Positions 4,604 to 63,410 of a stretch of DNA of 64,000 nucleotides are shown here, piece by piece. The notes beneath the pieces were generated by a model. The model made no database searches, was not told the origin of the DNA, and saw nothing but the letters and a program-made list of their open reading frames with translations. Position 1 is the stretch's first letter. Every line of letters begins with the position of its first letter. A program made the position numbers and the translations under genes. This DNA is from Saprospira sp. CCB-QB6 (lineage in GTDB: Bacteria > Bacteroidota > Bacteroidia > Chitinophagales > Saprospiraceae). The DNA is taken from assembly GCF_028464065.1 (NCBI RefSeq), contig NZ_CP116808.1:1135886-1199885 (forward strand). Reading direction: 5' to 3'.

Positions 4604-4637
4604 AGAGACCTTCTTTTCAGGAGGTCTCTTTTTTTTG
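4604..4637 (+). terminator. Rho-independent terminator of S8 peptidase gene
   Basis: Hairpin agagacc-ttcttttcagg-aggtctct followed by a T8 run that merges into the TTTTGGGG start of element copy 1. Confidence 0.7.
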
Positions 4638-4754
4638 GGGCCTGCCGCCTTTGGCGGCCGGGCCCTTGCAGGGCTCGCAGGTCTGCTCGGCCCTTCAGCC
4701 CTTCGGGCTTCGGTCTGGCCTGCGGCCACCCTTTCAGGCCCCTAGGCCAAATGG
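4633..4754 (+). repeat. GC-rich structured interspersed element, copy 1 (subfamily II, core variant GCTCGCAGGTCTGCTCGGCC)
   Basis: TTTTGGGGCC...gccgcctttggcggc hairpin...GCTCGCAGGTCTGCTCGGCC...GGTCTGGCC...CCTAGGCCAAATGG; shares modules with about 22 other copies in the window. Confidence 0.9.
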
Positions 4755-4811
4755 GAACCCTTCGCTTCTGCCCCCCTTTGATAAAAAAAGGCTACTTTAA
4801 GCTATTCTCTC

Positions 4812-5070
4812 TATAGATATATGCCATCCCTATCTTAGGATAACTAGTTTTTGCGCAGATATATACCTTCCCTGCCTTTTGATGACTAGTTTTTGCGCAG
4901 ATATATGCCTTCCCTGCCTTTTGATCGCTAGTTTTTACGCAGATATATGCCTTCCCTGCCTTTTGATGACTAGTTTTTACGCAGATATATGCCTTCCCTG
5001 CCTTTTGATCGCTAGTTTTTGCACAGATATATGCCTTCCCTGCCTTTTGATCGCTAGTTTTTGCAGAGCA
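4812..5070. repeat. 42-bp tandem repeat array (about 5.5 units; unit ctagtttttgcgcagatatatgccttccctgccttttgatga) plus one degenerate leading unit
   Basis: ctag recurs at 4844, 4886, 4928, 4970, 5012, 5054 (period 42); units differ only at 2-3 positions (ga/cg, g/a). Not a multiple of 3; ORF 4879..5079 is its translation. Confidence 0.9.
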
Positions 5071-5106
5071 AATAGCTAAAAGAAACTTTTCTCTTTAGGC
5101 TAGGAC

Positions 5107-5136
5107 CTAAAAAGGGCCAGCTAAATAGCTGGCCCT
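5107..5136 (-). terminator. Rho-independent terminator (minus strand) downstream of DoxX gene and element copy 2
   Basis: Perfect hairpin agggccagct-aaat-agctggccct, followed on the minus strand by TTTTT. Confidence 0.65.
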
Positions 5137-5152
5137 AAATCTTATGGATCTA

Positions 5153-5297
5153 GCAGGGCGCAAAGCGCCCGCAGGCTGAGGGATGAGAGCAGGGCCGCCC
5201 TAGGCGGCAGCCCCAGGCGCTTTAGCGCCGCAGGGCCGAGCGAACAGCGAGCTGCGGACAGCCCGACCCGCCCGCAGGGCGGGGCAGCCCCAAAAAA
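5153..5297 (-). repeat. GC-rich structured interspersed element, copy 2 (subfamily I)
   Basis: Reverse orientation: ...gctgagggatg...GGCCGAGCGAACAGCGAGC...cccgacccgcccgcagggcggggcagccccAAAA; lies between the DoxX stop and its terminator. Confidence 0.9.
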
Positions 5298-5310
5298 TAA
5301 TCCTCCAATC

Positions 5311-6333
5311 CTAAAGCGATAACTCCCAACTCAAACCCGAAATATCGACTAATCTTAGGGCTTTGGCCTTAGCCGCCAGCCTTTTGCTAAGGGGCAGACT
5401 CAGGCGAGCCTTGGCCCCCAAGGGAACCACTAGGCTATGTGCCCCCGCCTTGATTTTAGCGGGATAAGCATTCTGAATTTGTTGGTCGGGCAGGCTAGAA
5501 AGCACCTTTTGGTCCCAGGTCTTTAGAACTTGCCCTCTCTCATCTAACAATTCAATCTGGATGATAAAGGAGCCATAGACATCTACGCCCTCTATGCGAT
5601 AGAGCTCAAAGCTCAGACTATCGGCCTGAAGAAGCGGGGCTGATAGGGCCAATTTGGGCTTAACAGATTTGTTGTGTAGTTGCCCCCATAGGCCCGAATG
5701 AAAATATTGATTGGTATAAAGGGCGAGGGCCAAGATGAGCAAACTGCTCCATAAAACGGGCTTTTGGAAGCGTTCCCAGCGGATAGGGCCAGAGCTCCAG
5801 AACGACAGGTAACTGCTCCAGCCCCAATGCTCCAAAGCATAATGATCTAGGCTATAGCGGCCTCCGCCCGTCATAAATATACTGGCCCCAGCAGATACCC
5901 CCAAAATGCCAATTTGCCATTCATCTAGGCAGGTCGTGCCCAACCAGCCCGAACCCAGCAAAATGCCTAGGGCAAGGCCCAAAACGGCCAGACTCATCAG
6001 GCGACTTAAAAAGCCAAGCATAAAAAAGAGGCCCACAACACCCTCTACCAAAGTAAAAAAGAGCATGGCCCACCAGAGATAGGCGGGATGTTCGAGCAAA
6101 AACTCGATGATTGGGCCAATGCCTAGGGCCTGCGGCAAAAAATGGTTAAACTTGATGCCGATATAATTAGCCGCATCGGGGTCTAGCTTATTAGAGAGAA
6201 TCAGGCGGCGCCAAAAAGCCGAGAAATAGGTCCACCCCACCACTAGGCGGAGGCCCAAATTAAAGACGCCCAATAATTTATAAGAAAGGAACTGCTGCCC
6301 ATCTTGGGGCAAGGCTGTTGTTTGATTTGACAT
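5311..6333 (-). CDS. DoxX family membrane protein with about 190-aa C-terminal extension
   Basis: N-terminal DoxX-like TM region (LRLVVGWTYFSAFWRRL; several hydrophobic helices); C-terminal part unassigned. Confidence 0.65.
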   Translation of the reverse strand: MSNQTTALPQDGQQFLSYKLLGVFNLGLRLVVGWTYFSAFWRRLILSNKLDPDAANYIGIKFNHFLPQALGIGPIIEFLLEHPAYLWWAMLFFTLVEGVVGLFFMLGFLSRLMSLAVLGLALGILLGSGWLGTTCLDEWQIGILGVSAGASIFMTGGGRYSLDHYALEHWGWSSYLSFWSSGPIRWERFQKPVLWSSLLILALALYTNQYFHSGLWGQLHNKSVKPKLALSAPLLQADSLSFELYRIEGVDVYGSFIIQIELLDERGQVLKTWDQKVLSSLPDQQIQNAYPAKIKAGAHSLVVPLGAKARLSLPLSKRLAAKAKALRLVDISGLSWELSL

Positions 6334-6751
6334 ATAAATGAGTTTTTTTAATGAATGAATTGCTTAATTGCCAAGCATTCATCAACTCATTTTTCCATTG
6401 TTGGTAGAGCAGAAAGTAGGGTCGAGGAGGGCCTCGAGGGCCTTCGGCATCGAGCATAGCTCTATTTTTCCGCTTCATTTGGCTCAAAAAAAATAGCGAA
6501 GCCGAAGAAAGAGGCTTTGGACCTATTTTCTTTAGCTTCACTATCGTTTGGCTCCATTGCAGAAGCCTGTTTTCGCTTTTTTGTTCTGTTTTCGCACAGC
6601 TTAGGCCTTTGGCTTTTGCGGCCACAGCCGTGGGCAATTGGCCCAAACTGCTTTGCAGGGCCCAGCGCATTTTGCAAGGAGCCAGCAAGAGCAAGCTGCC
6701 CAAAAAGAGCAGGCCAATATATCTGCGAAGCCTTTTCATAGGCACAAACAT
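6278..6751 (-). CDS. Doubtful small ORF (signal-peptide-like N-terminus MKRLRRYIGLLFLGSLLLLAPC) overlapping hairpin structures and the DoxX start
   Basis: ORF only; spans a long imperfect hairpin (6336-6392) and a GC hairpin (6420-6456); overlaps the downstream gene by about 55 bp. Confidence 0.2.
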   Translation of the reverse strand: MFVPMKRLRRYIGLLFLGSLLLLAPCKMRWALQSSLGQLPTAVAAKAKGLSCAKTEQKSENRLLQWSQTIVKLKKIGPKPLSSASLFFLSQMKRKNRAMLDAEGPRGPPRPYFLLYQQWKNELMNAWQLSNSFIKKTHLYVKSNNSLAPRWAAVPFL

Positions 6752-8212: not shown

Positions 8213-8360
8213 TTTTGGGGCTGCCCCGGCCAAGGGCCGGGTCGGGCTGTATCGGGGCTCGCTGTTCGCTCGGCCCTGCGCGGGCTTTGCCCGCTGGGTC
8301 TGCGGCTTCGCCGCCCCCCTTTCCATCCCTCAGCCGAGGCGCTTTGCGCCTGCTCGCTGC
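8213..8360 (+). repeat. GC-rich structured interspersed element, copy 4 (subfamily I)
   Basis: TTTTGGGGCTGCCCCggccaagggccgggTCGGGCTGTatcggGGCTCGCTGTTCGCTCGGCCCTGCGcgggctttgcccgc...CCATCCCTCAGCC; preceded by a partial duplicate ggttgggggttgggga. Confidence 0.9.
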
Positions 8361-9010: not shown

Positions 9011-9171
9011 TGGTCCAAAAAATGGCGGCTTTGCCGCCTTGGCCGCAGGCCAAACGGCCTAGGGGCGTGAAGGGGTGGCCGAAGGCCAGACCGAAGCGCG
9101 CAGCGCTGAAGGGCCGAGCGAATAGCGAGCCCCGGAACGTAGCGCCGCAGCTTGCTGCGGAGGCCCCAAAA
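9011..9171 (-). repeat. GC-rich structured interspersed element, copy 5 (subfamily II)
   Basis: ...GGCCGAGCGAATAGCGAGCcccggaacgtagcgccgcagcttgctgcggaggccccAAAA; left end tggtccaaaaaa matches the AATTGGACCAAAA tail seen on other copies. Confidence 0.9.
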
Positions 9172-9230: not shown

Positions 9231-12200
9231 TTATTTCTGCAAAATAATGCGTTCGGTCAATACTTGCTCACCCACGATAATGCGAGCGAGATAAACGCCA
9301 GCGCTATAATTGGCTAGGTTAATTTGGTAGTTATGGTTACGGCCCAATTGGCTGGGGAAGCGTTGTACTTCTTGGCCATTGAGGTTAAAGATCGTCAATT
9401 GTACTTCTTCTTCCTTGGCTAGTTCAAGTTGAAGCTGAGCAACAGCTTGCGTAGGATTGGGGAAGAGGTTCAATTGGTTAAGGCCTTCAACTCCATTGAT
9501 GTTAGTGGGTTGAGTATAAGCCACAGTGATAATTTGGCTAGTAGAGCAACCTACTCGATCGTAGACAGTAACTTCATACTGGCCAGAAACGAGGTTATTG
9601 ATGCTAGCGGTAGTGTCTCCAGTATTCCAAACGATATAGTAAGGACCAACACCGCCAGAGACAGAAATATCGATAGAGCCAGCGAAGTCGCTGCTTTCGT
9701 TTACGATATTATCTACATTGATTGTCAAAGCGGGGTTAGCGCTAATTGTGTAGCTTTCGTCATAAGTACAGCCGATAGCGTCGGTAACGGTTACGCTATA
9801 AGTTTCGCCATCGAGGACGTTGCTTAGAGCGGCAGTAGTTGCGCCATTGCTCCAGTTGTAAGTATAGGGAGCTGTACCACCTTGTACGCCTGCTTGGAGG
9901 GTACCAGCATTGCCACAGTCTACACCATTAGCCACAAAGTTAAAGTTGATCGGGGCTGGGCCATTAACGGGATAAGTTTCGGTAAACTCACAGCCGTTAT
10001 CGTCGGTAATTGTTACGGTATAAGTTCCAACATCTAGTCCAGAGATATCTTCAGTAGTAGCGCCAGTGGTCCAATCAAAAGAGAAAGGAGCGGTACCGCC
10101 AGTTAGGCTGATATCAACAGCACCGTTACCGTCCCGTCCGCAGCTAAGTGTGCTCAATTGAGCGCTAACTGTGGGGGCGGGAAAGAAAGAAATTTGGATA
10201 GAGTCGGTCAAAACACAACCATTTCCATCAGTCATGGTCACGGCGTATTGGCCTTCCACGCTAGTAATAATTCCGGGCACAGTTTCGCCAGTACTCCAGA
10301 GATAGCTTTGAGCGCCAGGTGCTGCGGCCAATCCAATAGGACTGCTTTCACAGATAGTTGCATCGGGGCCAAGGTCTAGGTTAGCGGTAGCGACAACTGT
10401 AGCCGTAACGGGGGTACGTGTTGTACCACCAGCACAAGAAGTGATCTCTGCATAATAAGTAGTAGATACTTGAAGAGCAGGAGTAGTAAATACGGGATCG
10501 GTAGACAAGAGTGTACCGCCAGTAGCTTGATCGTACCAGCTAATTCCGCCAGCGGGCATAGAGGTCAAGCTAGCGCTATTTCCTACACAAGTAGTGTCTC
10601 CCATGAAAGTGGGGTTAGGATTAGCGATGCTCACACAAACGTTTGCGGTATCGTTGCTTGCGTTAGCGTCGGCAGCTAGCTGTGTAATAATTTCGAAGCA
10701 ATAGTTTCCGCCACCAGTAGTGTTAAAGGTACCTACAGTGAGAGTATCTTGAGCGGCAGAGGCTAGTGGACCTGCGTAAGTAGCGTTAAAGGTTTGCGTA
10801 CCGTTGGGGCCGTTCAAATTTACGGTTACGGGTACATTGCTGATGCTGTTGCTCCCATTATTAGATAGCGTAATCACTAAAACTTCATTGGCGTTTTCGC
10901 AGGTTCCTACGCTAGGTGCGTCAACACCAACGGCTACGGCATCATCCGTAAAGATAGTAATCTCATCGGCTCCGATATCGGGCAAGCTTGTCCCTGCAGA
11001 GGGGCGAGTTTCTCCATCGATATCAGTGGCAACACCTACAAGGGCTCCAGCGGCGTTGAGTTGGATGTTTTGAACGTGTAGGTCAGTGTAGTTAGCGACA
11101 AACTGAGGGTCGATATCCAAAGAGTTGGCATCATAGCCATAGGGGCCAGAGGCCTGCCAAGTAGCCAAGTCATAAGTAGTTGTACCATAATCGATATGGT
11201 TAGTTCCGCTAGCCTTATAGAATACGTTATTATCCATAGCGGCCAAGGGCAGGGCATCTGCAGATTCGAAAGCGTAGGCAGAAGCATTATCGGCCACAAA
11301 GATATTATTACGAATATCTAGGTCGGTGGGGTCATTCATATAAAGACCAGAAGCGGAAGAGCTTCCAGAACCTACTAGTGTATTGTGCCAGATATCTACA
11401 TATTGGATATCATCCATATAGAGTGCATCATCACTCTTAGAGAAGACAGTATTGTTGATAATCTGTCCACGGCGAGTGATAGCGCCATCGAAGTTACCAT
11501 CAGAGATATAGATACCGTAATCTTCTGTCACTACACGGTTGTAGTTAATCGTAAAGTCCATAATATCGAAGCAATAGATTGCATCACTGAAAGTAGAGCC
11601 CACAGTTGTTTCAATCGTATTGTAGTTAATCTCGATAGAATCTTGGTCGTCGAGATAGATACCATAGTCATCAAAATCTACAATTGTATTGTTGATGATA
11701 CGGTTGTATTTGTTGCGAGCGGCGCTAGCGCCTTCGATGTGAATTCCCATTTCACCACCAGTGATATAGTTATTCTCAATAAGAGTATAATTAGCATTAT
11801 TACCCTCTGTATAGTCATTGGTATATTCTCCTGAAATAACCACAGGAATCACATCAAAGACAGAAGTTTGGAAAGTCGCTGAGATGTAGTTATTTCGGAT
11901 GCTATTATGATCTGCACCATTGGTAAAATGTACAGCCCAACCATCATCTCCAGAAGCGGCAGTAGTCGCAATATTGAAGTTTTGTACCGTTACATAATCG
12001 ACTTCATCAAACAACACAGTAGCATATTGGCTATTAGAAGCGTCATGTGTAAGGAAAGTAGTTGCGGTATCGCCACCATCAAAAGTAATAGTATTCGTCA
12101 TACTTGCGCCAGTGATTTCTCCGACTAGGGCTAGTTGTTGCCCAGCATAGACGCCTGGAGCGACTTGGAAAGTGACGGCACCAGCCACACCACATTGGTA

Positions 12201-50956: not shown

Positions 50957-50958
50957 TC

Positions 50959-52825: not shown

Positions 52826-52955
52826 CTTGGCCTAGCGATGTGCAGCAGTGGCCGTCAGGCCAGACCAAGGCGCTGCAAGCGCCGCAGGGCCGAGCGAATA
52901 GCGAGCTGCGAAACGTAGCGCCGCAAGGCAAAGCCGCAGCGGAGGCCCCAAAAAA
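52826..52955 (-). repeat. GC-rich structured interspersed element, copy 20 (subfamily II; in divergent promoter region dnaX / DUF1573)
   Basis: cttGGCCTAGCGATGTGcagcagtggccgtcaggccagacc...GGCCGAGCGAATAGCGAGCtgcgaaacgtagcgccgcaaggcaaagccgcagcggaggccccAAAAAA. Confidence 0.9.
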
Positions 52956-52975
52956 TAAAACAAATCCCCTTAAAT

Positions 52976-53494: not shown

Positions 53495-53531
53495 TGGTAT
53501 ATTCGAGAGTATAACCAAAAAACTATTTGCA

Positions 53532-54245: not shown

Positions 54246-54261
54246 GCCCTATAAATAGGGA

Positions 54262-54303
54262 TAAAAAAAGCCGCAAAGGAAAATTCCTTTGCGGCTTTGT
54301 CAT
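54262..54303. terminator. Bidirectional Rho-independent terminator
   Basis: Perfect hairpin agccgcaaagg-aaaatt-cctttgcggct flanked by A-run and T-run, between convergent genes. Confidence 0.75.
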
Positions 54304-54834: not shown

Positions 54835-54859
54835 TGCGCTAAAAGTTAAAATTGAAATA

Positions 54860-56326
54860 ATGAAACAGCTATTTTGTCTGCTCGTTTTTTTTGGAGCCAG
54901 CCTTTTTGCTGAAAGTTGGGCCCAATCGAACCCTTGTCAAACCGTAGAACTCTATCTTTATGCCAAAGATAACAGCGGCTTTATTGCAGATGCAAATATT
55001 CGCTTTTGGCGAGCAGCCGACAGCCTGAGCTATCGGCTGAAAACAGATTCTTTGGGCCGCTGCAGAGCCTGTTTACCCTTGGCCCAAAAGAAGTATCAGG
55101 TCCAAATCCAACACAAAATTTTCTCTACTCAAAATTTTTCGCTCCAACTCGATGGTAGCGATAGTACAATCTATAAAAAAGTAGGCCTAGACCGCCTTCC
55201 AGGCTATTTACTGGAATTGAGTATTACCGAGTTTTTGAATAGCAAAGATAGCCTAAGCTCTGGAGAGTATAGCCTGGCAGGAGTGACCATCGAGATTTAT
55301 AACAAAACCCAATATAAACAAGAACTTCGCTTGGTTGAACACCCTCATCACGAGATTTCCTTTTTGATGGAGCAGGGCAATGAGTATATTTTCATGCTCC
55401 GCAAACAAGGCTATTATAGCAAGCGAATGCGGGCCAATGTGAATGTCAATGACTGCATTTTGTGCATGGAAGGTTTTGGAGAACTAACCCCCGGCGTCGC
55501 CGAATCCCTTACGCAGGATAATAGCATGGGAACCTTGGTCAGCAATGTGAATTTGCGCCCCTTGGCAGTAGGCGAAAAAATGAAATTGGACAATATTTAC
55601 TATGATTACGGCAGCTCTCAAATTCGGCCCGAAAGCTATGCTACCCTAGACCAATTGGCCGAAATGATGCGCGACAACCCCAATGTTTATATGGAGCTTT
55701 CGGCCCATACCGATGCTCGAGGGAGTAAGGCCTTTAATTTAGAACTTTCGCAAACTCGGGCCAATAATGTGGTCCAATACATCAAACAACGCCTACCCAA
55801 TGGAGCCGATCGGGTCAAGGCTCAAGGTTATGGAGAATCCAAGCCCCTCAATTCTTGCATAGATGGCATCAATTGTAGCGAGGAACTCCACCAGCAAAAC
55901 CGCCGAACCGAACTCTTGGTCCTTGATGTTCTAGATGATGAGGATTATATCAACCGCCCGCTGGCCTCTATTATGCAAGAAGAACTGGAATCCGAGATTT
56001 TAGCGGCCAACAATAGCTCCTACTTTAAAGAGAAGGACCCTAGCCAACAAAAAGCACAACAAACGCCCACGATTCCAGAACCAATTCCAGCCAATTATAG
56101 CGGCTACAAAATTGAATTGAGCCGCAGCCAAGAGAGTCCCGCCCTCGACCACCCTATTTTCATGGCCTTTTCAGAGGTTTTCCTTGACATTGACGATCAA
56201 GGAGTTATTAGCTTCATGGTCGGCGATTATCCCTCTCAAGCAGAGGTAAATAAGGCCTTAGACAAATTTCGTTCACGCTTTTCTAAAGCAAGGGCAGTTT
56301 ATTATAAAATGGGCGTTCGTCAATAG
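54860..56326 (+). CDS. OmpA family protein (N-terminal beta-rich domain plus OmpA-like peptidoglycan-binding domain)
   Basis: OmpA-C motif NIYYDYGSSQIRPESYATLDQLAEMM...ELSAHTDARGS...LSQTRANNVVQYI...GYGESKP. Confidence 0.85.
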   Translation: MKQLFCLLVFFGASLFAESWAQSNPCQTVELYLYAKDNSGFIADANIRFWRAADSLSYRLKTDSLGRCRACLPLAQKKYQVQIQHKIFSTQNFSLQLDGSDSTIYKKVGLDRLPGYLLELSITEFLNSKDSLSSGEYSLAGVTIEIYNKTQYKQELRLVEHPHHEISFLMEQGNEYIFMLRKQGYYSKRMRANVNVNDCILCMEGFGELTPGVAESLTQDNSMGTLVSNVNLRPLAVGEKMKLDNIYYDYGSSQIRPESYATLDQLAEMMRDNPNVYMELSAHTDARGSKAFNLELSQTRANNVVQYIKQRLPNGADRVKAQGYGESKPLNSCIDGINCSEELHQQNRRTELLVLDVLDDEDYINRPLASIMQEELESEILAANNSSYFKEKDPSQQKAQQTPTIPEPIPANYSGYKIELSRSQESPALDHPIFMAFSEVFLDIDDQGVISFMVGDYPSQAEVNKALDKFRSRFSKARAVYYKMGVRQ

Positions 56327-56489
56327 TTTTGGGGCTGCCCCTCGCTTCGCTCAGGTCGGGCTGTGTCAGGGCTCGCTATTCGCTCGGCCCTGCGGCGGCT
56401 TTGCCGCCTTGGTCTGGCCTGCGGCCCCCCTTTTCCATCCCTCAGCCTGCGGCCCTTTGGGCCTGCTAGACCCAATTGGACCAAAAAAA
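56327..56489 (+). repeat. GC-rich structured interspersed element, copy 21 (subfamily I with AATTGGACCAAAAAAA tail)
   Basis: TTTTGGGGCTGCCCCtcgcttcgctcaggTCGGGCTGTgtcagGGCTCGCTATTCGCTCGGCCCTGCGgcggctttgccgcc...CCATCCCTCAGCCtgcggccctttgggcctgctagaccCAATTGGACCAAAAAAA. Confidence 0.9.
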
Positions 56490-56496
56490 GCCGAGC

Positions 56497-56530
56497 CTGC
56501 TCAAAGCAGACTCGACTTCACTTAATAACC
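56497..56530 (-). terminator. Probable terminator of hsp20 (minus strand); its T-run is the complement of the element's terminal A-run
   Basis: gagcctgct-caa-agcagactc hairpin; on the minus strand it is followed by GGCTTTTTTTGG. Confidence 0.4.
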
Positions 56531-56586
56531 CTAAAACCTTAACCTTTGGCTTAATTCACTTAAGCCTCTGGAAAACCAAAAAACGC

Positions 56587-57033
56587 TTACTTAACTCGAA
56601 TGCTGATCTTCTCCTTTTTGGGCTCCACTTTTTTAGGAACCTCTAATTGGAGAATACCATTTTCATAGCTAGCAGTGATATTTTCTAAGTCGTATTTATT
56701 GGATAAACGGAGCTTGCGCTCAAAGGTTGTGAAAGCGAACTCTCTTTGTCTAACTTTAACATTTTCAGGCAGTTCCTTAACATTTTTTTGCGCAGAGATA
56801 TGGAGGAGGTCCTTATCTAGCTCCAATTTAAAATCTTCTTTTTGGAAGCCAGGTGCGGCCAATTCTAGCAAAAGGCCAGTTTCCGTTTCAAAGACATTGA
56901 GCATAGGTTGTTGATGCGCTTGGTCTTGACCAAAAAATTGTTGTAGAGGTTCTTGCTTGAGCAGCTGTTCTAGCTCTTTGCCTAATTCATTAAAGGGAAA
57001 ACCGAAGAAGTGATTTGCTTTTGCGTTTTTCAT
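56587..57033 (-). CDS. Hsp20/alpha-crystallin family small heat-shock protein
   Basis: ACD motifs LLELAAPGFQKEDFKLELDKDLLHISAQK ... YENGILQLEVPKK. Confidence 0.9.
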   Translation of the reverse strand: MKNAKANHFFGFPFNELGKELEQLLKQEPLQQFFGQDQAHQQPMLNVFETETGLLLELAAPGFQKEDFKLELDKDLLHISAQKNVKELPENVKVRQREFAFTTFERKLRLSNKYDLENITASYENGILQLEVPKKVEPKKEKISIRVK

Positions 57034-57218
57034 AGCTGTATTATTTTCTTACTCTTTTAATATTTAAGCTGGCCTTGGGCCAGTATGTCTATCGAAGCTT
57101 CAACCTCTATTAGACAAGTTTGAGACCAAGGGCCAAAAAGAAGAAAATAAGTGCCATTTTGGCAGCTCACTTTAAAAAACACTGCCAAAATGGCAAAAAC
57201 GGTTTTAAATGGCTGTCA

Positions 57219-57404
57219 TTTTGGTCCAATTGCGGTTTTGCAGGGCGCGAAGCCGCCGCAAAGGAGCGCAGCGACGCGGCTGAGGGATGGAAAGTGGGGC
57301 GGCGCAGCCGCAGACCGAGCGGGCTTTGCCCGCGAAGGGCCGAGCGAATAGCGAGCCACGACACAGCCCGACCCGAGCGAAGCGAGGGGCAGCCCCAAAA
57401 AAAA
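57219..57404 (-). repeat. GC-rich structured interspersed element, copy 22 (subfamily I, long variant)
   Basis: TTTTGGTCCAATTGcgg...gagcgcagcgacgcGGCTGAGGGATGGaaagtggggcggcgcagccgcagaccgagcgggctttgcccgcgaaGGGCCGAGCGAATAGCGAGCcacgACACAGCCCGAcccgagcgaagcgaGGGGCAGCCCCAAAAAAAA. Confidence 0.9.
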
Positions 57405-57435
57405 TCCCCTCTCAAAATGAAAGGGGATCTTGATT

Positions 57436-59568
57436 TTATTTATTCAGCTTGATATAATCCTTTAGGATAAAGGCGACTTCTTCTAGATAGGCATCTTTTG
57501 CTAAGTTTTCGTGCCATTTCTTAAAGCTATTGGCCTTTGTGCTATCGCTAGCAATTTGGTCCTTATCGGCATTGAGGTTATAAATATTAAAGTCCTCAAT
57601 TTTGGGCATCATATCTTTGTAATGTTCGGCCTCTTTATCCGTTTGGGCCTGATGTGCCTCATAATCTTCAAGTTGAAGAGGATAAACAGTTTCTTCTTGT
57701 TGTTTTTCCAGCCATTTTCCGTGTTCTTCTAGCAGCTGAAAAGTTTTGCTTTTTTCTTGGCGTTTCTCGCTTTTGCTCAAGATTTTGGGCAAAGTCTTTA
57801 TCTTCTTTTTGTGATAGTTGGCGGGGTCAATTTCGGACCAAGCCATAGGATAATCCTCATCTTTTTCGCCCACTTTGAGGTAGCTATAGCTACCAGGCAA
57901 CACGATATCGGGTTCAACGCCTTTGAGCTGTGTAGAGCCGCCATTGATGCGATAAAACTTTTGAATAGTAATTTTGAGGCTACCTAGTGCGCCCAAATCT
58001 TTGTAGCGGGGCGGAACCACGGCATCGAGGTCCATAAAGCGTTGCACCGTTCCCTTACCAAAAGTAGAGGGGCTTGTGCCTACGATAATGGCGCGGCCAT
58101 AATCTTGCAAAGCGGCGGCCATAATTTCGGAAGCAGAAGCCGAGTACGCATTAACGAGGATAATCAATGGCCCTGTGTAGAGCGCTCCAGCATTCTGATC
58201 TTCTAATACGTACGGTCGATTATCTCGGCTTTTAACTTGAACCACAGGCCCTCGATCAATAAAAAGCCCCGTCATTTTAACTACATCGGAGAGTGATCCT
58301 CCACCATTAAAACGAAGGTCGATTACAATCCCATCAATATCTTCTTTAAGTAATTTTCGGACCTCTTCCTCTACATCAACAGCGCAGCGGCGACCTTTTG
58401 GATCTTGGAAATCGGCATAAAAGCTACGCAAATCGATCAAACCCATTTTTACATCGGCTGCTTTATGTTCGATAATTGCAGACTTAGCATAACTCTCTTC
58501 AAGGACGACTACATCTCGGATGATAGGAATAATTTTGGTTTCGCCGCTTGTTTTCTTCACCGTCAGGCGCACCTCGGTTCCTTTTTTTCCGCGAATCATA
58601 GGAAGTACATCATCAATGCGCATATCAACTACATTGACCGCCTCTTCGTTGCCCTGGGCTACCTTAATAATTTTGTCATTGACTTCTAGTTCACCTTGTT
58701 TCCAAGAAGCAGAACCTGGAACAATATTCACTACCTTAATATAGCCATCTTCTTGGCGCAGTTGGGCCCCTATTCCCTCCAATTTACCCGACATACGGAT
58801 ATTAAAATTCTCCTTTTCGAGTGGGGGAAAATAGCCAGAATGGGGTTCATGTGCATTCGCAAAAGCATTTACATAATTGGCAATGCGGTCATCTCGGCCA
58901 TCTTTTTTGATATTTTCGGACCATTCCCGATAGCTTTTGAGCAACTTTTCCCGCTCTTCTTTTTCAATCACTTCAAAGCTTTTAATACTATCTAGCTCTT
59001 CCCCCTTTTCTTGAGCCTTTTCTTGGCGCTCTAAGCGATCGTGTACCCGACCAAGCACTTGCAATTTAAGGTAATCGTGCCAACGAGCTTTAAGGGCTTC
59101 AGGACTATCTAAAAACTCTAATTTTTCGCCATCCATCTGAAACTCTCCTTTTTCAGCAAAGCTAAAAGGCTTCGCCAGAATTTCTTCATAATAGCCTTCT
59201 ACTTGCTTAATTCGTTGATCAAAGGTATTATTGACCAGATTAAAAAAGCTAAAATCGCCAGCTTGAGCTGCATCATCTAATTTGAATTTAAAATCTTCAA
59301 ACTTTTTGACATCATCGGCCAAGAAAAAACGCTTATTCAGGTCCATTCGCTTCAAATAAAGCGCATAAACTTTTTCCGAAAACTCATCATTGATGGCTTC
59401 AGGCGCATAATGATTGTAGCGCATGCTTTGCAGCACCACTTCAAGCAGCAGTTCTTCTCTATTCGAGAGATCCCCACTAATTTGGGGTTGGTTATTTTGC
59501 CCTTGCTGCCAACGGAAGGCAATCAGCAGGCTGCAAGCGGCAGTAATTAAGAGGAGTTTACGGATCAT
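57436..59568 (-). CDS. C-terminal processing peptidase (S41 family, tail-specific protease)
   Basis: PDZ region plus S41 catalytic LVNAYSASASEIMAAALQDYGRAIIVGTSPSTFGKGTVQ; DLRFNGGGS; 710 aa. Confidence 0.9.
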   Translation of the reverse strand: MIRKLLLITAACSLLIAFRWQQGQNNQPQISGDLSNREELLLEVVLQSMRYNHYAPEAINDEFSEKVYALYLKRMDLNKRFFLADDVKKFEDFKFKLDDAAQAGDFSFFNLVNNTFDQRIKQVEGYYEEILAKPFSFAEKGEFQMDGEKLEFLDSPEALKARWHDYLKLQVLGRVHDRLERQEKAQEKGEELDSIKSFEVIEKEEREKLLKSYREWSENIKKDGRDDRIANYVNAFANAHEPHSGYFPPLEKENFNIRMSGKLEGIGAQLRQEDGYIKVVNIVPGSASWKQGELEVNDKIIKVAQGNEEAVNVVDMRIDDVLPMIRGKKGTEVRLTVKKTSGETKIIPIIRDVVVLEESYAKSAIIEHKAADVKMGLIDLRSFYADFQDPKGRRCAVDVEEEVRKLLKEDIDGIVIDLRFNGGGSLSDVVKMTGLFIDRGPVVQVKSRDNRPYVLEDQNAGALYTGPLIILVNAYSASASEIMAAALQDYGRAIIVGTSPSTFGKGTVQRFMDLDAVVPPRYKDLGALGSLKITIQKFYRINGGSTQLKGVEPDIVLPGSYSYLKVGEKDEDYPMAWSEIDPANYHKKKIKTLPKILSKSEKRQEKSKTFQLLEEHGKWLEKQQEETVYPLQLEDYEAHQAQTDKEAEHYKDMMPKIEDFNIYNLNADKDQIASDSTKANSFKKWHENLAKDAYLEEVAFILKDYIKLNK

Positions 59569-59799
59569 AACTTATAGTTCGGTATAATTTATTAAGCCAG
59601 GGGCAAAAAAGAAGATAGCGTATTTTTGTTAAAATTTGCAGGCTACTTCTTCTATTGGGCTATAAAATAGGGCCATTCATTTTGCTTTAACAAATTTTAA
59701 TACGTTAGAACGATATTTTTAGTTGATTTTTTAGAAAAATTTGGGCCAAATCTATGCTGAAGTAGATAAAGCGCAACAATTTTGAGGAAAGGGCGCCTA

Positions 59800-59936
59800 T
59801 TTTGGGGCTGCCCCTCGCTTCGCTCGGGTCGGGCTGTATCGCAGCTCGCTATTCGCTCGGCCCTGCGCGGGCTTCGCCCGCTGGGTCTGGCCTACGGCCA
59901 CTGCTGTCCATCCCTCAGCCTGCGGCCCTTTGGGCC
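59800..59936 (+). repeat. GC-rich structured interspersed element, copy 23 (subfamily I)
   Basis: TTTTGGGGCTGCCCCtcgcttcgctcgggTCGGGCTGTatcgcaGCTCGCTATTCGCTCGGCCCTGCGcgggcttcgcccgc...GTCCATCCCTCAGCCtgcggccctttgggcc. Confidence 0.9.
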
Positions 59937-59998
59937 TATAAAACGCAAAAAGCCCCAATTTGCTTAAGCAAATTGGGGCAAATCAGATCAAACAAGAC

Positions 59999-60613
59999 CT
60001 ATTGTACCGTTTCGTTTAGTACTTGTAGGCGCTGAGAAACTTCTTGGCCAGCCTCATTATAAAGACGGAAAATATAATATCCATCTTCAAAGGTTTTAAG
60101 GTTAACAGCCTTATAATTATTACCTGGGGTTAGGCTCATCTTATTTTGAGCCACCAATTCGAGGCTTTGCGCCTCATAGATTTCAAATTCTAGTTCTTGA
60201 GCATCTTTAGCATTCACTCCAAAAAGAAAATAACCTTCTTGAACAGGTTCTGGAGACATACTCAAAGTTACTGGCAACTCCTTTTGTTTATTATCGGCTC
60301 CCATCAAGCTAGCCAATAAACGTTGGCTAAAAGCGGCATCACCTGCTTTTCGGTCAGCTTCTGCCAAAGCCTCTACTGGTTCTTTAAATACCTCTGCGGG
60401 AATTTGTCCTTCTGCTTGGGCCAAAGGCAAACGATCAAATTTTTCTACCACCAAAGTCTTTACATCTAGTTTGCCTCGTTGAGCAGACTCTGTAATGATT
60501 TTTTCGGTTTTAACTGCTGTAGTTGCACTGCCAGCAGCATTATCACAGTCACATTGACAGCCATAGGCTAGAAAAGCGATGGCAATAGGTAGGTAAATTG
60601 CTTTTTTAAACAT
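59999..60613 (-). CDS. Small lipoprotein-signal protein with T9SS-CTD-like C-terminal beta domain (paralog 1 of 4)
   Basis: Signal MFKKAIYLPIAIAFLAYGC; C-terminal FEIYEAQSLELVAQNKMSLTPGNNYKAVNLKTFEDGYYIFRLYNEAGQEVSQRLQV resembles Por-secretion tail. Confidence 0.6.
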   Translation of the reverse strand: MFKKAIYLPIAIAFLAYGCQCDCDNAAGSATTAVKTEKIITESAQRGKLDVKTLVVEKFDRLPLAQAEGQIPAEVFKEPVEALAEADRKAGDAAFSQRLLASLMGADNKQKELPVTLSMSPEPVQEGYFLFGVNAKDAQELEFEIYEAQSLELVAQNKMSLTPGNNYKAVNLKTFEDGYYIFRLYNEAGQEVSQRLQVLNETVQ

Positions 60614-60733
60614 CCTTCTTAATTTTAGGGCTAACGAACTATTTAAAATAAATTCATTTTAAGGAAAAAAAGAGCGTACTGTTCCACAGCCGCTCTTTTT
60701 AAAAATTGTTCAGACAAAAACAGCGTCTGAATA

Positions 60734-61276
60734 TTAGTCACGCTTGATAACGACTGTATTAGTCATTTCTTTACCAGCTTCATCTTTAAGCTTGAAGAAA
60801 TATTTACCTTCTTCTAGGCTAGATACTTTTAGTGCTTTGTAGTTATGACCTTGGTTGAGGCTAAATTTGTTGTTAGCGGCTAGCTCGAAACCTTCTTCAT
60901 CGTACATTTCGAACATAACATCTTTAGCTTCTTCTGCTTTAAGGCCAAAAACGAACATATCATCTACAGCTTTATCTTCCATAGTAAGTTCGATACCTGC
61001 AAGCTGATCTTCTTTTTCAGCAGACATCAAAGAGCTGTGAATATCATTTACAGCATCCTCGTTTTGTTTTGCACTAGCTTTTTTAGCTTCTACAACAAAA
61101 ACGTCTTCAGCAGTAATAGCAACATCTGCACCTTGAAACTGGACAGTTTGCACACCACGTGTACTGTTTACATTTTGGATATTTACAGCAGTAGCGGCCT
61201 GCTGGCTGTCAGAGCCACAAGAGCCCATAGTAAATAAAACAGCGGCAGCAAGGAGGAAGCTTGACAACTTTTTCAT
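60734..61276 (-). CDS. Small lipoprotein-signal protein with T9SS-CTD-like C-terminal domain (paralog 2)
   Basis: MKKLSSFLLAAAVLFTMGSC; C-terminal FEMYDEEGFELAANNKFSLNQGHNYKALKVSSLEEGKYFFKLKDEAGKEMTNTVVIKRD. Confidence 0.65.
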   Translation of the reverse strand: MKKLSSFLLAAAVLFTMGSCGSDSQQAATAVNIQNVNSTRGVQTVQFQGADVAITAEDVFVVEAKKASAKQNEDAVNDIHSSLMSAEKEDQLAGIELTMEDKAVDDMFVFGLKAEEAKDVMFEMYDEEGFELAANNKFSLNQGHNYKALKVSSLEEGKYFFKLKDEAGKEMTNTVVIKRD

Positions 61277-61442
61277 AAGAAGTGGTTTTAATGTGATAGT
61301 AAATAATAGGCATTGGCTGTTGAAGCCAATTGTTTTGGGGTATAATTGCTATTGAAACAAGGGGTTCAATTAGCGCTATATACCTTTATGACAATAATAC
61401 TGACTTTGTTACCTTTAAAGCCATTTTTTTTCAAAAAAAAGC

Positions 61443-61985
61443 TCAGACCTTCACTAAACCTAAATAGATTATTTCCAAAGAATTAGCCACAGTTAGAATA
61501 TAAGGTCCTTCTTCTAGGCTAGAGGTAGAAATAACTAGGTTTGTTTTTCCATTTTTAATGGGAATAGTTTCTTTGGCTAAGCGGTTAAAGCCATCTTGAT
61601 CAAAGAACTGTAGCTCTATATCGATTTCTTCTTCTGTTTCTAATTGCAAATAAAGACGATCTTGCCCTTCTTTCTTGTACGCCAATTGGATAGGGTTTTC
61701 AGCTAGTTCATTGGCTTTAGTCAATAATTCTCTTAGTTGTGCTTGACTTTTACTGGATAAGCTTCCCTTCCCTCTTAAAAAGAGTTTTACCTCTTTTAAT
61801 TTGGTATCTACCTCATCTAGTTGAGCTAATTGGGGAAAGTCTGAAAAATGGAGTTGATGTCCTCGTACACTACTATCTGCCTGCAAGCCTTCAATATTAA
61901 CTTCTGGGTTAGGCGTGCCCCCTGGTCCACAAGCAGTGACCAAAAAGAGCAGGACAAAATAAATAATACGATACTTTAGAAACAT
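61443..61985 (-). CDS. Small lipoprotein-signal protein, divergent paralog 3 (CTD-like end LEEGPYILTV)
   Basis: Start chosen at MFLKYRIIYFVLLFLVTAC; C-terminal IELQFFDQDGFNRLAKETIPIKNGKTNLVISTSSLEEGPYILTV. Confidence 0.55.
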   Translation of the reverse strand: MFLKYRIIYFVLLFLVTACGPGGTPNPEVNIEGLQADSSVRGHQLHFSDFPQLAQLDEVDTKLKEVKLFLRGKGSLSSKSQAQLRELLTKANELAENPIQLAYKKEGQDRLYLQLETEEEIDIELQFFDQDGFNRLAKETIPIKNGKTNLVISTSSLEEGPYILTVANSLEIIYLGLVKV

Positions 61986-62195
61986 TGGGAGTGGTTTTGT
62001 AGACCAGTTGTCTATGTTAGAAGTGTAGTTTAACAAGCTAGAGATCCCTCTCTTTTTAGACTGTCACTTAATAGCACTTCTAGGAGACTTAAATATAAGC
62101 ATATTTAACGAGCCTTTAAGGTATTTTAGCACAAAAAGGACAGCTTTTTAGTAGGCTGTCCTTTAGGCTCATCATTGGCTTATCTGGATAATAAA

Positions 62196-62738
62196 CTACT
62201 CTCTTTCAATAGAGAACATTTCATTCAATTCGGCTCCAGCTTGATTTTTAAGCTTAAAGTAGTACGTTCCTTCTTTTAGGCTACTGACTTTGATCGCTTT
62301 GTAGTTTTTGCCTTCTGTTACTTCGATGCTATTGTTGGCCGCTAGTTCAAAGCCCTCTTCATCATACATCTCAAAAGTGAGGTTTTCATCAGCATTTGAT
62401 TCTAGAGAAAAGGCAAAAATGTCATTGATAGGACCTTCGGCCATAGTCATTTTAACATCTAGTTTTTGGGCCTCATTTTCAGCTTTAGCTAAGGAACGCA
62501 TGATTCCCGTTACTGCCTCTTCATTTTGCTTATCTTTAGCTTTAAGGATAATCATATCCTCAGCTGCAATACTTACCGCATCGCCAGCAATGCTAAATTT
62601 TTGAGCACCACGAGTTTCTTCTAGATTGATGCTTGCGGCCATACTGCTCCCAGCCTTCTTGGCCAAGTCATCGCCACAACTACTCATTGTAAAAAGAACA
62701 ATTGCGCTGAAGAGGAATAGTAAATTGAGTTTCTTCAT
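62196..62738 (-). CDS. Small lipoprotein-signal protein with T9SS-CTD-like C-terminal domain (paralog 4)
   Basis: MKKLNLLFLFSAIVLFTMSSC; about 50% identical to paralog 2 (FEMYDEEGFELAANNSIEVTEGKNYKAIKVSSLKEGTYYFKLKNQAGAEL). Confidence 0.65.
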   Translation of the reverse strand: MKKLNLLFLFSAIVLFTMSSCGDDLAKKAGSSMAASINLEETRGAQKFSIAGDAVSIAAEDMIILKAKDKQNEEAVTGIMRSLAKAENEAQKLDVKMTMAEGPINDIFAFSLESNADENLTFEMYDEEGFELAANNSIEVTEGKNYKAIKVSSLKEGTYYFKLKNQAGAELNEMFSIERE

Positions 62739-62860
62739 GGTTGGTGTGATTTAAGAGTTGCTTTTTTAAAATTTTCTATTGATTTTACTATATTATATCG
62801 GTTGGGCTACTGCCAAACCGTCTAATATTCTAACATTTTCTCGTCCTAATATCAAAAATA

Positions 62861-63175
62861 ATGCAAAACCAAGATAAACAAGAACTTAATATTCAAATTT
62901 CTGAAGAAGTAGCTGATGGCATCTATTCTAACCTAGCTATTATCAGCCACTCTCCTGATGAGGTAGTTTTAGACTTCATTCGTTTGGTACCGAATATTGA
63001 TCATGCACGAGTGAAATCTCGTATATTAATGAGCCCTCATCATGCCAAGCGTTTGTTGGCCGCTTTGTCTGATAATCTACAGCGTTATGAGCAAGAATTT
63101 GGTCCCATTCAGGATCCAAGAAATCCTAGTCGAAATAGTAGTTTATCTTTTTCTGGCCCTAAAGGCCAAGCTTAA
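62861..63175 (+). CDS. DUF3467 family protein
   Basis: GIYSNLAIISHSPDEVVLDF motif typical of DUF3467; 104 aa. Confidence 0.65.
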   Translation: MQNQDKQELNIQISEEVADGIYSNLAIISHSPDEVVLDFIRLVPNIDHARVKSRILMSPHHAKRLLAALSDNLQRYEQEFGPIQDPRNPSRNSSLSFSGPKGQA

Positions 63176-63198
63176 ATTAATGCGCCCAAAATCAAGCC

Positions 63199-63226
63199 AA
63201 AAGCCCTTTTTAAGGGCTTTTTTTTA
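63199..63226 (+). terminator. Rho-independent terminator
   Basis: aaagccc-ttttta-agggcttt plus T8. Confidence 0.7.
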
Positions 63227-63240
63227 TGAGCTAAATTAGC

Positions 63241-63410
63241 CTTGGCAGGCGGCTTGGCCGCCGCAGAGGAGCGCAGCGACTCGACTGGCTGAGGGATGGA
63301 AAGTGGGGCGGCGAAGCCGCAGACCGAGCCAGCTTGCTGGCGAAGGGCCGAGCGATCAGCGAGCCACGACACAGCCCGACCCGCCCAAAGGGCGGGGCAG
63401 CCCCAAAAAA
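63241..63410 (-). repeat. GC-rich structured interspersed element, copy 24 (subfamily I, long variant; sister of copy 22)
   Basis: ...gagcgcagcgactcgactGGCTGAGGGATGGaaagtggggcggcgaagccgcagaccgagccagcttgctggcgaaGGGCCGAGCGATCAGCGAGCcacgACACAGCCCGAcccgcccaaagggcgGGGCAGCCCCAAAAAA. Confidence 0.9.

Follow-up and report, generated by a model that had tools for sequence, protein, structure and literature searches.

Several kinds of short, structured repeat are known from the spaces between bacterial genes. Repetitive extragenic palindromic (REP) sequences are usually specific to a species. The BOX elements of Streptococcus pneumoniae, the enterobacterial repetitive intergenic consensus (ERIC) or intergenic repeat unit (IRU) sequences, and the Correia elements (NEMIS) of Neisseria are intergenic repeats of 100-200 nt that have stable predicted folds and are co-transcribed, BOX being built in modular fashion as boxA-boxB(n)-boxC. 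For IS608, a target tetranucleotide lies 5' of the element. In bacterial interspersed mosaic elements (BIMEs), as one account describes them, successive units alternate in orientation (PMC2817692). Here we describe a GC-rich, non-coding repeat in a 64-kb stretch of the chromosome of Saprospira sp. CCB-QB6 (contig NZ_CP116808.1, positions 1,135,886 to 1,199,885; hereafter the window). We are nearly certain that it is a genuine, family-wide repeat constrained in structure; with about even confidence, we read it further as a REP/BIME-like element that acts mainly at the DNA level and is homogenized by gene conversion.

The window holds 23 copies of the element, each about 120 nt long (116-207 nt) and together making up about 5% of the DNA as structured repeat. 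An nhmmer profile from 15 seed copies and a covariance model (R1), for which 11 copies of subfamily II were used, returned the same 23, each matched by R1 from end to end and with scores of 25-120 bits, at the positions given in an original prediction that had counted about as many. Element GC content was 0.61-0.75, against 0.37-0.53 per kb of the window and about 0.46 overall. The sequence TTTTGGGGC was observed 20 times where 2.1 occurrences were expected, and the 19-nt core GCTCGCTATTCGCTCGGCC, with up to 3 mismatches, 15 times against an expectation of 0.02. The copies do not all share one start, as had been claimed: 17 of the 23 begin with exact TTTTGGGGC, four with ATTTGGGGC, and one each with TTCTGGGGC and GTAGGGGC, while three of the 20 matches to TTTTGGGGC (38871, 41826 and 53206) are not elements. 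Both predicted core variants were recovered, variant A in 15 copies and variant B (GCTCGCAGGTCTGCTCGGCC-like) in seven, the remaining copy (46630) having variant A split by a 37-nt insertion. The two subfamilies, I and II, proved to be real, but a long form of 207 nt exists in addition to them (15076-15282 and 16843-17049), and the copy thought to be a chimera (predicted at 19438-19568) is a true hybrid at 19442-19569, being of type II at its 5' end and of type I at its 3' end, where CAGCC can pair with an internal GGCTG. Identity between any two copies of the window reaches at most 0.85.

All 23 copies are intergenic. The original statement that nearly every intergenic gap is occupied was too broad, since by our count about 20 of about 31 gaps longer than 100 nt contain a copy; of the gaps longer than about 190 nt, however, all but two do. 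Pfam searches of 20 flanking proteins in the window identified ordinary chromosomal genes, among them those for a protease sorted by the type IX secretion system, an SprB-like giant protein, photolyase, a moxR/bat cluster, DnaX, Ctp, an OmpA-family protein and HSP20. A clustered regularly interspaced short palindromic repeat (CRISPR) array was ruled out, because the copies are spaced at 0.2-6 kb, have genes in the intervals and occur on both strands. Coding potential was likewise rejected, as the open reading frames (ORFs) that overlap elements are extensions of real genes. The description of the family as non-coding, hairpin-modular, interspersed and neither an insertion sequence (IS) nor CRISPR is thus upheld.

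One architecture fits all copies. RNAalifold, run for each subfamily and followed by manual inspection, gave a closed, branched, multi-helix fold whose order, on the strand that begins with TTTT (the TTTT strand), is TTTTGG, P1, hairpin Pa, P1b/P1c, P2, the loop CTCGCTATTCGCTC, hairpin Pb, P4, and then the 3' strands of P2, P1c, P1b and P1. Helix P1 closes the element by pairing 5' GGCCU (subfamily II) or GGCUG (subfamily I) with 3' AGGCC (II) or CAGCC (I), so that the subfamilies differ by matched changes on both P1 strands and their 5' and 3' signatures go together. This long-range closing pairing did not figure in the original prediction, nor did the gene-polar placement, strand alternation and concerted evolution described below. 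The further 5' segments that follow Pa (P1b and P1c) also pair with the 3' strand, and P2 covaries as GGGG/CCCC, GCAG/CUGC, GUGG/CCAC or AGGG/CCCU. Inside P2 lies a junction composed of the unpaired, near-invariant 14-nt CTCGCTATTCGCTC, the variable hairpin Pb, and P4, which takes the form GGCC-loop-GGCC or CGGC-loop-GCCG. Helix P3 (GGCC/GGUC) never varies and hence has no support from covariation, and variation is greatest in Pa, the hairpin next to the 5' end of the element. The TCGCT..TCGCTC motif of the loop is seen again in the Pa hairpin of subfamily I (CCCCTCGCTTCGCTCGGG) and in modules on the 3' side, among them GTCGCTTCGCTCC, found four times where 0.03 occurrences were expected. In many copies the core fold is followed on its 3' side by 0-3 extra GC hairpins and an optional CAATTGGACCAAAA end. 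The terminal inverted motif of the original prediction exists, in the form TTGGNCCA(AAA), but it is optional: it was found within 130 nt downstream in 25 of the 83 Saprospira copies from which our counts of placement and orientation were also drawn, about twice the background.

The fold was examined for covariation across 130 distinct sequences. Because the alignment was fitted to the model, the percentage of paired cells (92.2%, against 72.7% in shuffles) is inflated; double-sided changes numbered 648 cells against 198 in shuffles, and the covariation score was 0.387 against 0.113 in shuffles and 0.02-0.06 in controls with slid partners. Double changes were seen in 24 of 29 pairs, and the fifth pair of P1 (16-318) occurs as all four Watson-Crick types (UA 57, CG 23, GC 20, AU 19). 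Even with the inflation of the paired percentage, the pair types in P1, P2, Pb and P4 are so varied that they would be hard to account for if there were no real constraint.

The family is not peculiar to this window. An exact scan with the 19-nt core, covering one genome per species, located it at a minimum of 120 loci, which among the matches listed are nearly all in Saprospiraceae or Lewinellaceae, the carriers including S. grandis, Phaeodactylibacter luteus, Lewinella, an Aureispira metagenome-assembled genome (MAG) and many other MAGs. With so many loci in other genomes, a local duplication does not account for the family. R1 found 131 copies in the first 100 of these loci and 35 more in 23 further sources (L101-L120, S. 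grandis L123, L126 and the metagenome contig L121). In a 22-kb region of S. grandis that was not selected for the element, there were nine copies, all intergenic, at the density of the window (one per about 2.8 kb). The window Ctp and the Ctp of S. grandis DSM 2844 share 93% identity, and positions 50793-64000 align with the latter genome at 82.4% nucleotide identity; the more distant relative L126, in which Ctp is 70% identical, gave one weak match in 22 kb. Searches of Rfam returned nothing on the elements, either at the gathering threshold over the 64 kb or at E values up to 10 on 56300-57420 and 46600-47400. In the literature that we searched (repeats of Saprospira and Saprospiraceae, the core sequence, and the REP surveys PMC3733652, PMC6006769 and PMC12306157), the family was not described, so that the expectation of no catalogued match has held.

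The breadth of the distribution raises the question of whether the 19-nt core alone is what is conserved. If it were a DNA uptake or recognition signal (of the DUS/USS type) kept by a conserved receptor, the hairpins would be incidental, terminator-like context. DUS and USS have a similar density and form family-level 'dialects', and the core is identical across genera and recurs about once per 2.8 kb. However, uptake sequences also occur inside genes, whereas every core match in the window, with up to 3 mismatches, falls within one of the 23 intergenic copies. Moreover, a second core variant (GCAGGTCTGC) is present in the same genome, covariation shows that the constraint extends beyond the core to the surrounding fold, and the group is not known to be competent. 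We therefore consider an uptake signal very improbable.

Some further observations were made among the loci collected. L119 (OZ245742.1), a complete chromosome labelled Leptonemataceae, Spirochaetota, has two copies, at 1890-2001 (28.7 bits) and 4179-4295 (36.8 bits), with a P1 variant, GGCGCC/GGCGC, that it has in common with the 'Flavobacteriales' MAG locus L016; these copies reflect either a wider distribution, horizontal transfer or mislabelling. Phage carriage was discounted, the core being found in a single viral contig, which had no R1 match. A second repeated module of about 125 nt (AGATTTAATCGCGCTGCTTTGG...GGCATAGCCTTCGCTATGGCC...GAAATTGCTGCAA) is attached 3' of several S. grandis copies (L088 from about 3162, L054 below about 7163, L067 below about 6247 and, in part, L123 at about 9595-9648) and gave 0 matches in the window. 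Two Logan contigs of 2449 nt from independent short-read assemblies (L124 and L125) contain ctp only, with 248 nt upstream and 68 nt downstream. The elements that flank ctp in L123 start 223 nt upstream and 34 nt downstream of it and, judged by these positions, both contigs appear to break inside repeats.

We examined whether the constraint is exerted on DNA or RNA. Families of structured RNA normally show many G.U intermediates. In contrast, the variable pairs of this family comprised 2869 Watson-Crick cells, 17 G.T and 44 A.C, and between positional orthologs 129 pairs were unchanged, 26 had changed on both sides and 0 on one side only. The element is also indifferent to the direction of transcription, the copies between tandem genes being co-oriented with them in 26 cases and opposed in 24. 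The two marks looked for in a generic test of functional RNA, G.U intermediates and a strand fixed with respect to transcription, were therefore both lacking. The triloops on the TTTT strand are TGC, TTC or TAC in about 90 instances, compared with about 3 of the complements GCA, GAA and GTA (GNA), a bias by which the complementary strand carries C-GNA-G triloops; such triloops form exceptionally stable DNA mini-hairpins. When folded as single-stranded DNA, the complementary strand had the consensus fold as its minimum-energy structure in all six copies examined (6/6; mean -28.0 kcal/mol), and the TTTT strand had a mean of -25.4 kcal/mol, with the consensus fold in some copies only. As RNA, the minimum-energy fold of the TTTT strand often departed from the consensus (z -1.9 to +0.5). 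By these criteria the constraint is most likely read on DNA, and RNA-level consequences are probable as a secondary matter.

The opposing view is that of a cis-acting structured RNA, selected as RNA, whose transcribed fold would block 3'-5' exonucleases, terminate or attenuate transcription, or bind a protein through the loop. Its appeal lies in the overall design, because a multi-helix junction with an invariant single-stranded joining region (here the unpaired 14-mer) and variable peripheral hairpins is usually the look of a functional RNA. Two positions on the TTTT strand are nearly invariant as G.T, that is, G.U (121/130 and 117/130). These positions favour the TTTT strand, whereas the loop bias and the energies favour the other, so that the identity of the folded strand is ambiguous. 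Placement, too, can be argued in favour of RNA. Of 73 copies, 35 follow a co-oriented gene, and copies with the 5' end toward a stop codon lie a median of 19 nt from it, many of them only 1-12 nt away. Other copies are found inside the moxR/bat cluster, which is operon-like, and at 23-41 nt upstream of start codons, where by our reasoning no room is left for a downstream promoter; the copies in both of these settings must be transcribed. Five of the 83 copies, on the other hand, start exactly at the T-tail of an intrinsic terminator (4633, 46630 and 57400 of the window among them) and may lie beyond the end of the transcript. A terminator role for the core fold itself was rejected, as it has no 3' U-run and a terminator hairpin adjoins only those five copies. 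Considering also the random orientation, the near absence of G.U from the covarying helices, the lack of one-sided changes, the wayward RNA folds and the absence of an Rfam match, we regard selection as an RNA as unlikely.

The copies are placed with a marked polarity. The 5' (TTTT) end is closer than the 3' end to the neighbouring gene in 59 of 73 copies (p = 1e-7), with median distances of 37 nt and 213 nt, respectively, and the same polarity holds in single-copy gaps (41/54). An oligo-T run of 3-9 nt, most commonly 4, marks the 5' boundary, and where two copies share a gap they are arranged tail-to-tail (+,-) in 10 of 11 cases. Successive copies alternate in strand along the chromosome. In Saprospira, 51 of 59 neighbouring pairs do so; in the window, the string of strands is +-+--++--+-+-+-+-+-+-+- (19 of 22 pairs, p = 4e-4), in L123 it is +-+-+-+- (7 of 7), and in the other S. 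grandis loci 25 of 30 pairs alternate. Neighbours more than 700 nt apart show the same behaviour (41 of 49, p = 1e-6), as do 20 of 21 pairs, counted by hand, in loci of other genera that have at least two matches. A replichore bias of orientation was not seen, both orientations being present in every locus along the 4.4-Mb S. grandis scaffold, and replication-oriented insertion was rejected on that account.

Together, alternation and polarity divide the chromosome into two kinds of gene block that take turns. Some blocks are hugged by 5' ends: photolyase, BatD with its neighbour, the vault-protein block, the WD40-caspase gene, yebC to transaldolase, THUMP with a histidine kinase, DUF1573 to OmpA, and Ctp. 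Others are faced by 3' ends, namely an ABC ATPase, a peptidase, DnaX, HSP20 and a run of small genes. Where two hugged blocks are adjacent, tail-to-tail doublets result. On one reading of this arrangement, inverted pairs would be the functional units and would mark the boundaries of gene blocks, whether as insulators or topological barriers, as anchors for a bridging protein or as panhandle partners. In keeping with that idea, copies around a hugged block of the window are more alike than random pairs (0.677 vs 0.562, a value reached by 15 of 10000 random samples), and the only two long-form copies of the window both flank the photolyase gene. The similarity of flanking partners was, however, not reproduced in S. 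grandis L123 (0.447 vs 0.537), no bridging protein is known, and the alternation could instead stem from insertion targeted to oligo-T combined with loss of neighbours in direct orientation. A role for inverted pairs as block boundaries thus strikes us as improbable.

Six sites could be compared within 13 kb of true synteny with S. grandis DSM 2844. All six are occupied in that species, so the sites predate the split of two lineages that are now 82% identical in this stretch. Sequence at these sites, in contrast to the sites themselves, is not stable. After ctp, a subfamily-I copy in the window corresponds to a subfamily-II copy in S. grandis, the core variant having switched together with the two strands of P1 between near-identical flanks; Pa and Pb have been replaced wholesale between positional orthologs, and one variant of Pb, GCTTTTTCGCTACGCTCAAAAAGC, is found in at least two S. 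grandis copies. Five of the six window copies have paralogs in their own genome that resemble them more than the positional ortholog does; the latter ranks 4th-22nd of 30. This pattern is characteristic of concerted evolution, whether through short-patch gene conversion or through repeated replacement, and not of recent transposition.

We looked for signs of mobility and for an enzyme that might mobilize the element. No target-site duplication was seen by eye in four full-length copies (26717, 50795, 56327 and 57400), no insertion polymorphism at the six sites compared with S. grandis, and no transposase among the 20 window proteins searched with Pfam. The terminal inverted repeat amounts to TTTTGG(N)CC / GG(N)CCAAAA, with an optional 3' motif. 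Consequently, of the original description as MITE/REP-like we retain the REP-like part; a miniature inverted-repeat transposable element (MITE) is not supported by what was found. An IS with matching ends was absent from the window and the loci, TnpA and TnpB genes were not found near elements, and all-against-all clustering of ORFs from 122 loci revealed no gene family that travels with the element (the largest cluster covered 10 loci). A scan for HUH/Y1 motifs in six-frame ORFs of about 1 Mb, comprising the window and the loci rather than whole Saprospira genomes, returned a single ORF, in L016. It encodes a RayT homolog, and a minimal copy of the element, of 84 nt, is situated about 60 nt upstream of it. 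The same arrangement occurs in L127, which is syntenic with L016, and the two count as one observation. This RayT carries a REP of its own that differs from the element (GTAGAGACGG...CCGTCTCTAC), with one copy in frame and another past the stop codon, and four other RayT loci (L128, L130-L132) have no element.

The RayT genes merit a brief description in their own right. In the homolog of L016 (about 5912-6420, minus strand) and L127 (1039-1557, plus strand), the in-frame REP insertion is GTAGAGACAGAATATATTCCGTCTCTAC, with a second copy just past the stop, and the protein, at 67% amino-acid identity, evolves faster than its neighbours, for which the figure is about 90%. The RayT-like genes at 6001-6603 of L130 and L131 and at 4902-5582 of L132 are situated beside hsdS in type I restriction-modification loci, downstream of hsdR in the case of L130 and L131, and the host contigs are unrelated.

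Active movement as a non-autonomous element of the MITE kind or of the kind formed by paired REPs (REPINs), driven by a REP-associated tyrosine transposase (RAYT) of the HUH/Y1 type or by another transposase encoded elsewhere in the genome, has to be weighed against these findings. The high copy number, the existence of subfamilies, the REPIN-like tail-to-tail doublets, the constant oligo-T at the 5' boundary and the minimal copy beside RayT can all be cited for it. So can the sequence of the complementary strand in subfamily II (CGTAGCGCC-hairpin), where a GTAG stands 4 nt away from the foot of Pa, although subfamily I lacks it (GGGTCGGGCTGT) and Pa, the hairpin nearest to it, is hypervariable. 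Subclasses of RAYT with 'atypical secondary structures' have been reported from Bacteroidetes (PMC6006769). Yet the sites are shared between species, no pair of window copies exceeds 85% identity, duplications and a replication-strand bias were not seen, the motif and Pfam searches gave only the one ORF, that RayT has its own REP, and no gene family is enriched beside elements. A link between RAYT and the element is possible and is unsupported by the loci examined; active mobility appears to us rather unlikely.

The reading that we favour, a REP/BIME-like repeat acting mainly on DNA, can be outlined as follows. The fold would be read on single-stranded or extruded DNA, where the displayed TCGCT..TCGCTC loop is a probable, putative binding site for a conserved protein of the host or of the element. 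Copies would have been laid down beside gene ends, just 3' of an oligo-T run, which would leave the TTTT end proximal to the gene, and would have been kept at their sites since before the split of the two Saprospira lineages. Meanwhile, short-patch gene conversion from other copies would continually overwrite their sequence, by which means the two halves of each helix would stay matched and chimeras would arise. Those copies that are transcribed, in operons or after stops, would form a very stable RNA structure, and a REP-like effect on mRNA 3' ends would be a likely side effect or co-opted role.

Several considerations weigh against this reading. They include the RNA-like junction, the invariant G.U positions, the ambiguity of the folded strand and the copies that must be transcribed, all discussed above, as well as the fitting of the alignment to the model. 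The z-scores for folding, at -2.4 to +0.8, are all weak, since shuffled sequences of such high GC content fold well too. Neither a trans-acting protein for the element nor an empty site was found, and insertion beside oligo-T is deduced from placement. The sample of comparable sites is small and stayed at six when the vault gene was considered as a second synteny anchor, as no close S. grandis DSM 2844 ortholog was among its matches. Finally, gene conversion is suggested by patterns in the sequences, and repeated re-insertion at hot spots is a possible alternative to it.

A more far-reaching interpretation, which we hold to be doubtful, is that these copies represent a kind of element not previously described: a branched fold of about 120 nt in single-stranded DNA or RNA, displaying an invariant 14-nt loop, with some 1,500 copies per genome (by extrapolation) throughout a bacterial family, whose inverted pairs would partition gene blocks as a polar boundary or insulator, or as a system of recombination or conversion. 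Alternatively, it might be the substrate of a new structure-specific mobilization enzyme, or a new catalytic or ligand-binding RNA.

The individual copies are as follows, with R1 scores in brackets. The first, 4633-4748 (+; subfamily II, core B; full length, 87.1 bits), starts at the oligo-T tail (T8) of the terminator hairpin 4596-4632, 3' of an S8 peptidase gene (91-4572). Its tail-to-tail partner, 5174-5295 (-; subfamily I; 47.5 bits), has its 5' end 16 nt past the stop of a DoxD/DoxA gene (5311-6333, minus strand), and a tandem array of six 42-nt units lies between the two. The copy at 8213-8335 (+; subfamily I; 60.9 bits) has its 5' end facing the start of a minus-strand gene that Pfam identifies as TANGO2-like, and that at 9056-9171 (-; subfamily II with a variant 3' strand, CACGCCCCTAGGCC; 105.8 bits) follows the stop codon of the SprB-like giant gene at a distance of 60 nt. 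The long form at 15076-15282 (-), with two inserted modules of about 50 nt, was matched by R1 at 15076-15231 (25.4 bits) and by nhmmer at 15282-15073, and its 5' end faces the photolyase start (15410). Across photolyase is its partner, 16843-17049 (+), 39 nt past the stop, which was found by nhmmer and by R1 (16894-17049, 28.3 bits) and is 80% identical to 15076-15231 on the model alignment. In the moxR/bat cluster, 19253-19369 (+; subfamily II, core B; 104.3 bits) forms a tail-to-tail doublet with 19442-19569 (-; 69.3 bits), the hybrid, whose type-I 3' end (CCATCCCTCAGCC) is evident in the alignment. The copy at 24035-24155 (-; subfamily II, core B; 118.7 bits) lies between two co-oriented bat genes, antisense to both, with its 5' end 41 nt from the start of the gene for BatD (by Pfam).

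In the central part of the window, 26717-26839 (+; subfamily II; 112.7 bits) lies 6 nt past a stop codon and is followed by AATTGGACCAA. The 5' end of 29689-29822 (-; subfamily II; 95 bits) is 34 nt upstream of the start of gene 29856, and 33268-33384 (+; subfamily II; 113.8 bits) is 2 nt past the stop of a major-vault-protein homolog; these two copies, at opposite ends of one gene block, are 79% identical. A divergent copy, 35606-35731 (-; 71.9 bits), has the GTAGGGGC start, core B and the 3' strand GCCAGTCAGCC. The copy at 39204-39331 (+; subfamily II, core B; 118.4 bits) is 10 nt past the stop of the WD40-caspase gene (by Pfam), and 41648-41766 (-; subfamily II, core B; 119.9 bits), upstream of a yebC-like gene, is also present in the 98.4%-identical contig L121 (R1 119.9 bits). 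The copy with the insertion of 37 nt in its core loop, 46630-46789 (+; subfamily II; 64 bits), starts at the T9 tail of the transaldolase terminator, and its tail-to-tail partner, 47242-47362 (-; subfamily II, core B; 107.5 bits), is separated from it by an array of 5.6 units of 41 nt.

The remaining copies are in the region shared with S. grandis, where their orthologs are found in L123. The copy at 50795-50915 (+; subfamily I; 74.1 bits; ortholog 18671-18804) is 23 nt past a histidine-kinase stop and has a 3' extension, consisting of one hairpin and CAATTGGACCAGAAAA, to about 50951. The 5' end of 52829-52953 (-; subfamily II; 113.3 bits; ortholog 16615-16735) is 23 nt upstream of the DUF1573 start. 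The copy at 56327-56447 (+; subfamily I; 70.3 bits; ortholog 13101-13235), 1 nt past an OmpA-family stop, is extended on its 3' side to about 56484, ending in CAATTGGACCAAAAAAA, and there abuts the convergent HSP20 terminator (56519-56487). The copy with subfamily II as its S. grandis ortholog is 57278-57400 (-; subfamily I; 63.7 bits), which begins where the hairpin of the ctp terminator ends in its T8 tail. At the other side of ctp, the 5' end of 59800-59920 (+; subfamily I; 71.9 bits; ortholog 9649-9778) faces the ctp start at a distance of 232 nt. The last copy, 63287-63408 (-; subfamily I; 63.9 bits; ortholog 6093-6217), is 9 nt past a stop codon and differs from its ortholog by compensatory changes in P2, Pb and P4.

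Features of other kinds were also noted in the window. The tandem arrays at 4815-5064 (42 nt x6.0, 91% matches) and 46830-47059 (41 nt x5.6, 94% matches) are mutually unrelated, and both lie exactly between the members of tail-to-tail pairs (4633+/5295- and 46630+/47362-); they have no spacers and hence are not CRISPR. A third array, at 40584-40747 (44 nt x3.7, with a 22-nt sub-period; unit TCCTCGGGAGGACGTCAATAAATCCTCTTGACCATTTTACAAG), is upstream of a gene (41046-41555) whose product has no Pfam match. The vault gene (30735-33266, plus strand) encodes a protein of 843 amino acids with hundreds of homologs named 'major vault protein' (PF11978, PF17795), and 2 kb downstream of it is the gene for a WD40-repeat protein with a C-terminal caspase domain (Peptidase_C14; 35460-39194, plus strand). 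Direct repeats of 71% identity within the SprB-like giant gene (11627-11835 and 13277-13485) and within the gene for a PKD-domain protease (3289-3377 and 4165-4253) are ordinary domain repeats, unrelated to the element family.

If the density of the window holds genome-wide, Saprospira has about 1,500 copies, which shape almost all of its larger intergenic regions. The copies will break up assemblies made from short reads (compare the ctp contigs above), and the family provides a ready marker and a covariance model for the annotation of Saprospiraceae genomes and MAGs. It offers a tractable system, in a cultivable organism, for the study of how repeats persist, whether by selfish spread, gene conversion or host function, and it bears on whether bacteria organize chromosomes or transcripts by means of oriented pairs of repeats.

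It remains to set the element beside the systems with which we began. With structured RNAs of the kind catalogued in Rfam, such as riboswitches and ribozymes, it has in common a conserved core and variable peripheral stems, yet it belongs to none of those families and its variable helices are without G.U pairs. The palindrome-associated transposable elements (PATEs) and other HUH elements derived from IS200/IS605 resemble it in needing neither terminal inverted repeats nor target duplication; the constant oligo-T to its 5' side recalls the IS608 target tetranucleotide, and folded single strands are the substrate (details of IS608 and HUH are in part from PMC6006769). Unlike these, the Saprospira element shows no bias of orientation with respect to replication, and the hairpin nearest its 5' end is hypervariable. 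BOX, ERIC and Correia sequences are likewise modular, intergenic, 100-200 nt long and stably folded by prediction. However, there is no relation in sequence, the Saprospira element is denser (about 5% of the DNA) and taxonomically more widespread, its fold covaries across genera, and the 26-bp terminal inverted repeats and TA duplication of Correia were not seen in it.

In behaviour the element is most like the REP/BIME sequences of E. coli. As in the Enterobacteria and Pseudomonas, REPINs included, we are dealing with high-copy, GC-rich, extragenic, hairpin-forming repeats, found after stops and between cistrons in both orientations, as inverted doublets, built as mosaics with optional motifs, and partly conserved in position between related species. 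The differences are nonetheless considerable. A REP is a single imperfect palindrome of about 20-40 nt, whereas the present element has 116-207 nt and is built of five to seven helices, one of which closes it by long-range pairing, around a three-way junction; its most conserved part is an unpaired 14-mer and not a GT[AG]G foot; alternation extends over kilobases and across genes rather than within a cluster; the same core is kept across the whole family; and no cognate RAYT was found (no REPtron in the approximately 1 Mb scanned, and the RayT of L016 has its own REP). A branched, closed fold, a family-wide loop, fixed sites that are overwritten and alternation over kilobases are unusual for structured intergenic repeats, and REP/BIME, BOX and Correia do not combine a cross-genus core and a Watson-Crick covarying fold with such sites and such alternation. 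Thus, while the class of element is familiar, the way in which its features are combined is not, and least of all their polar arrangement with alternating strands.

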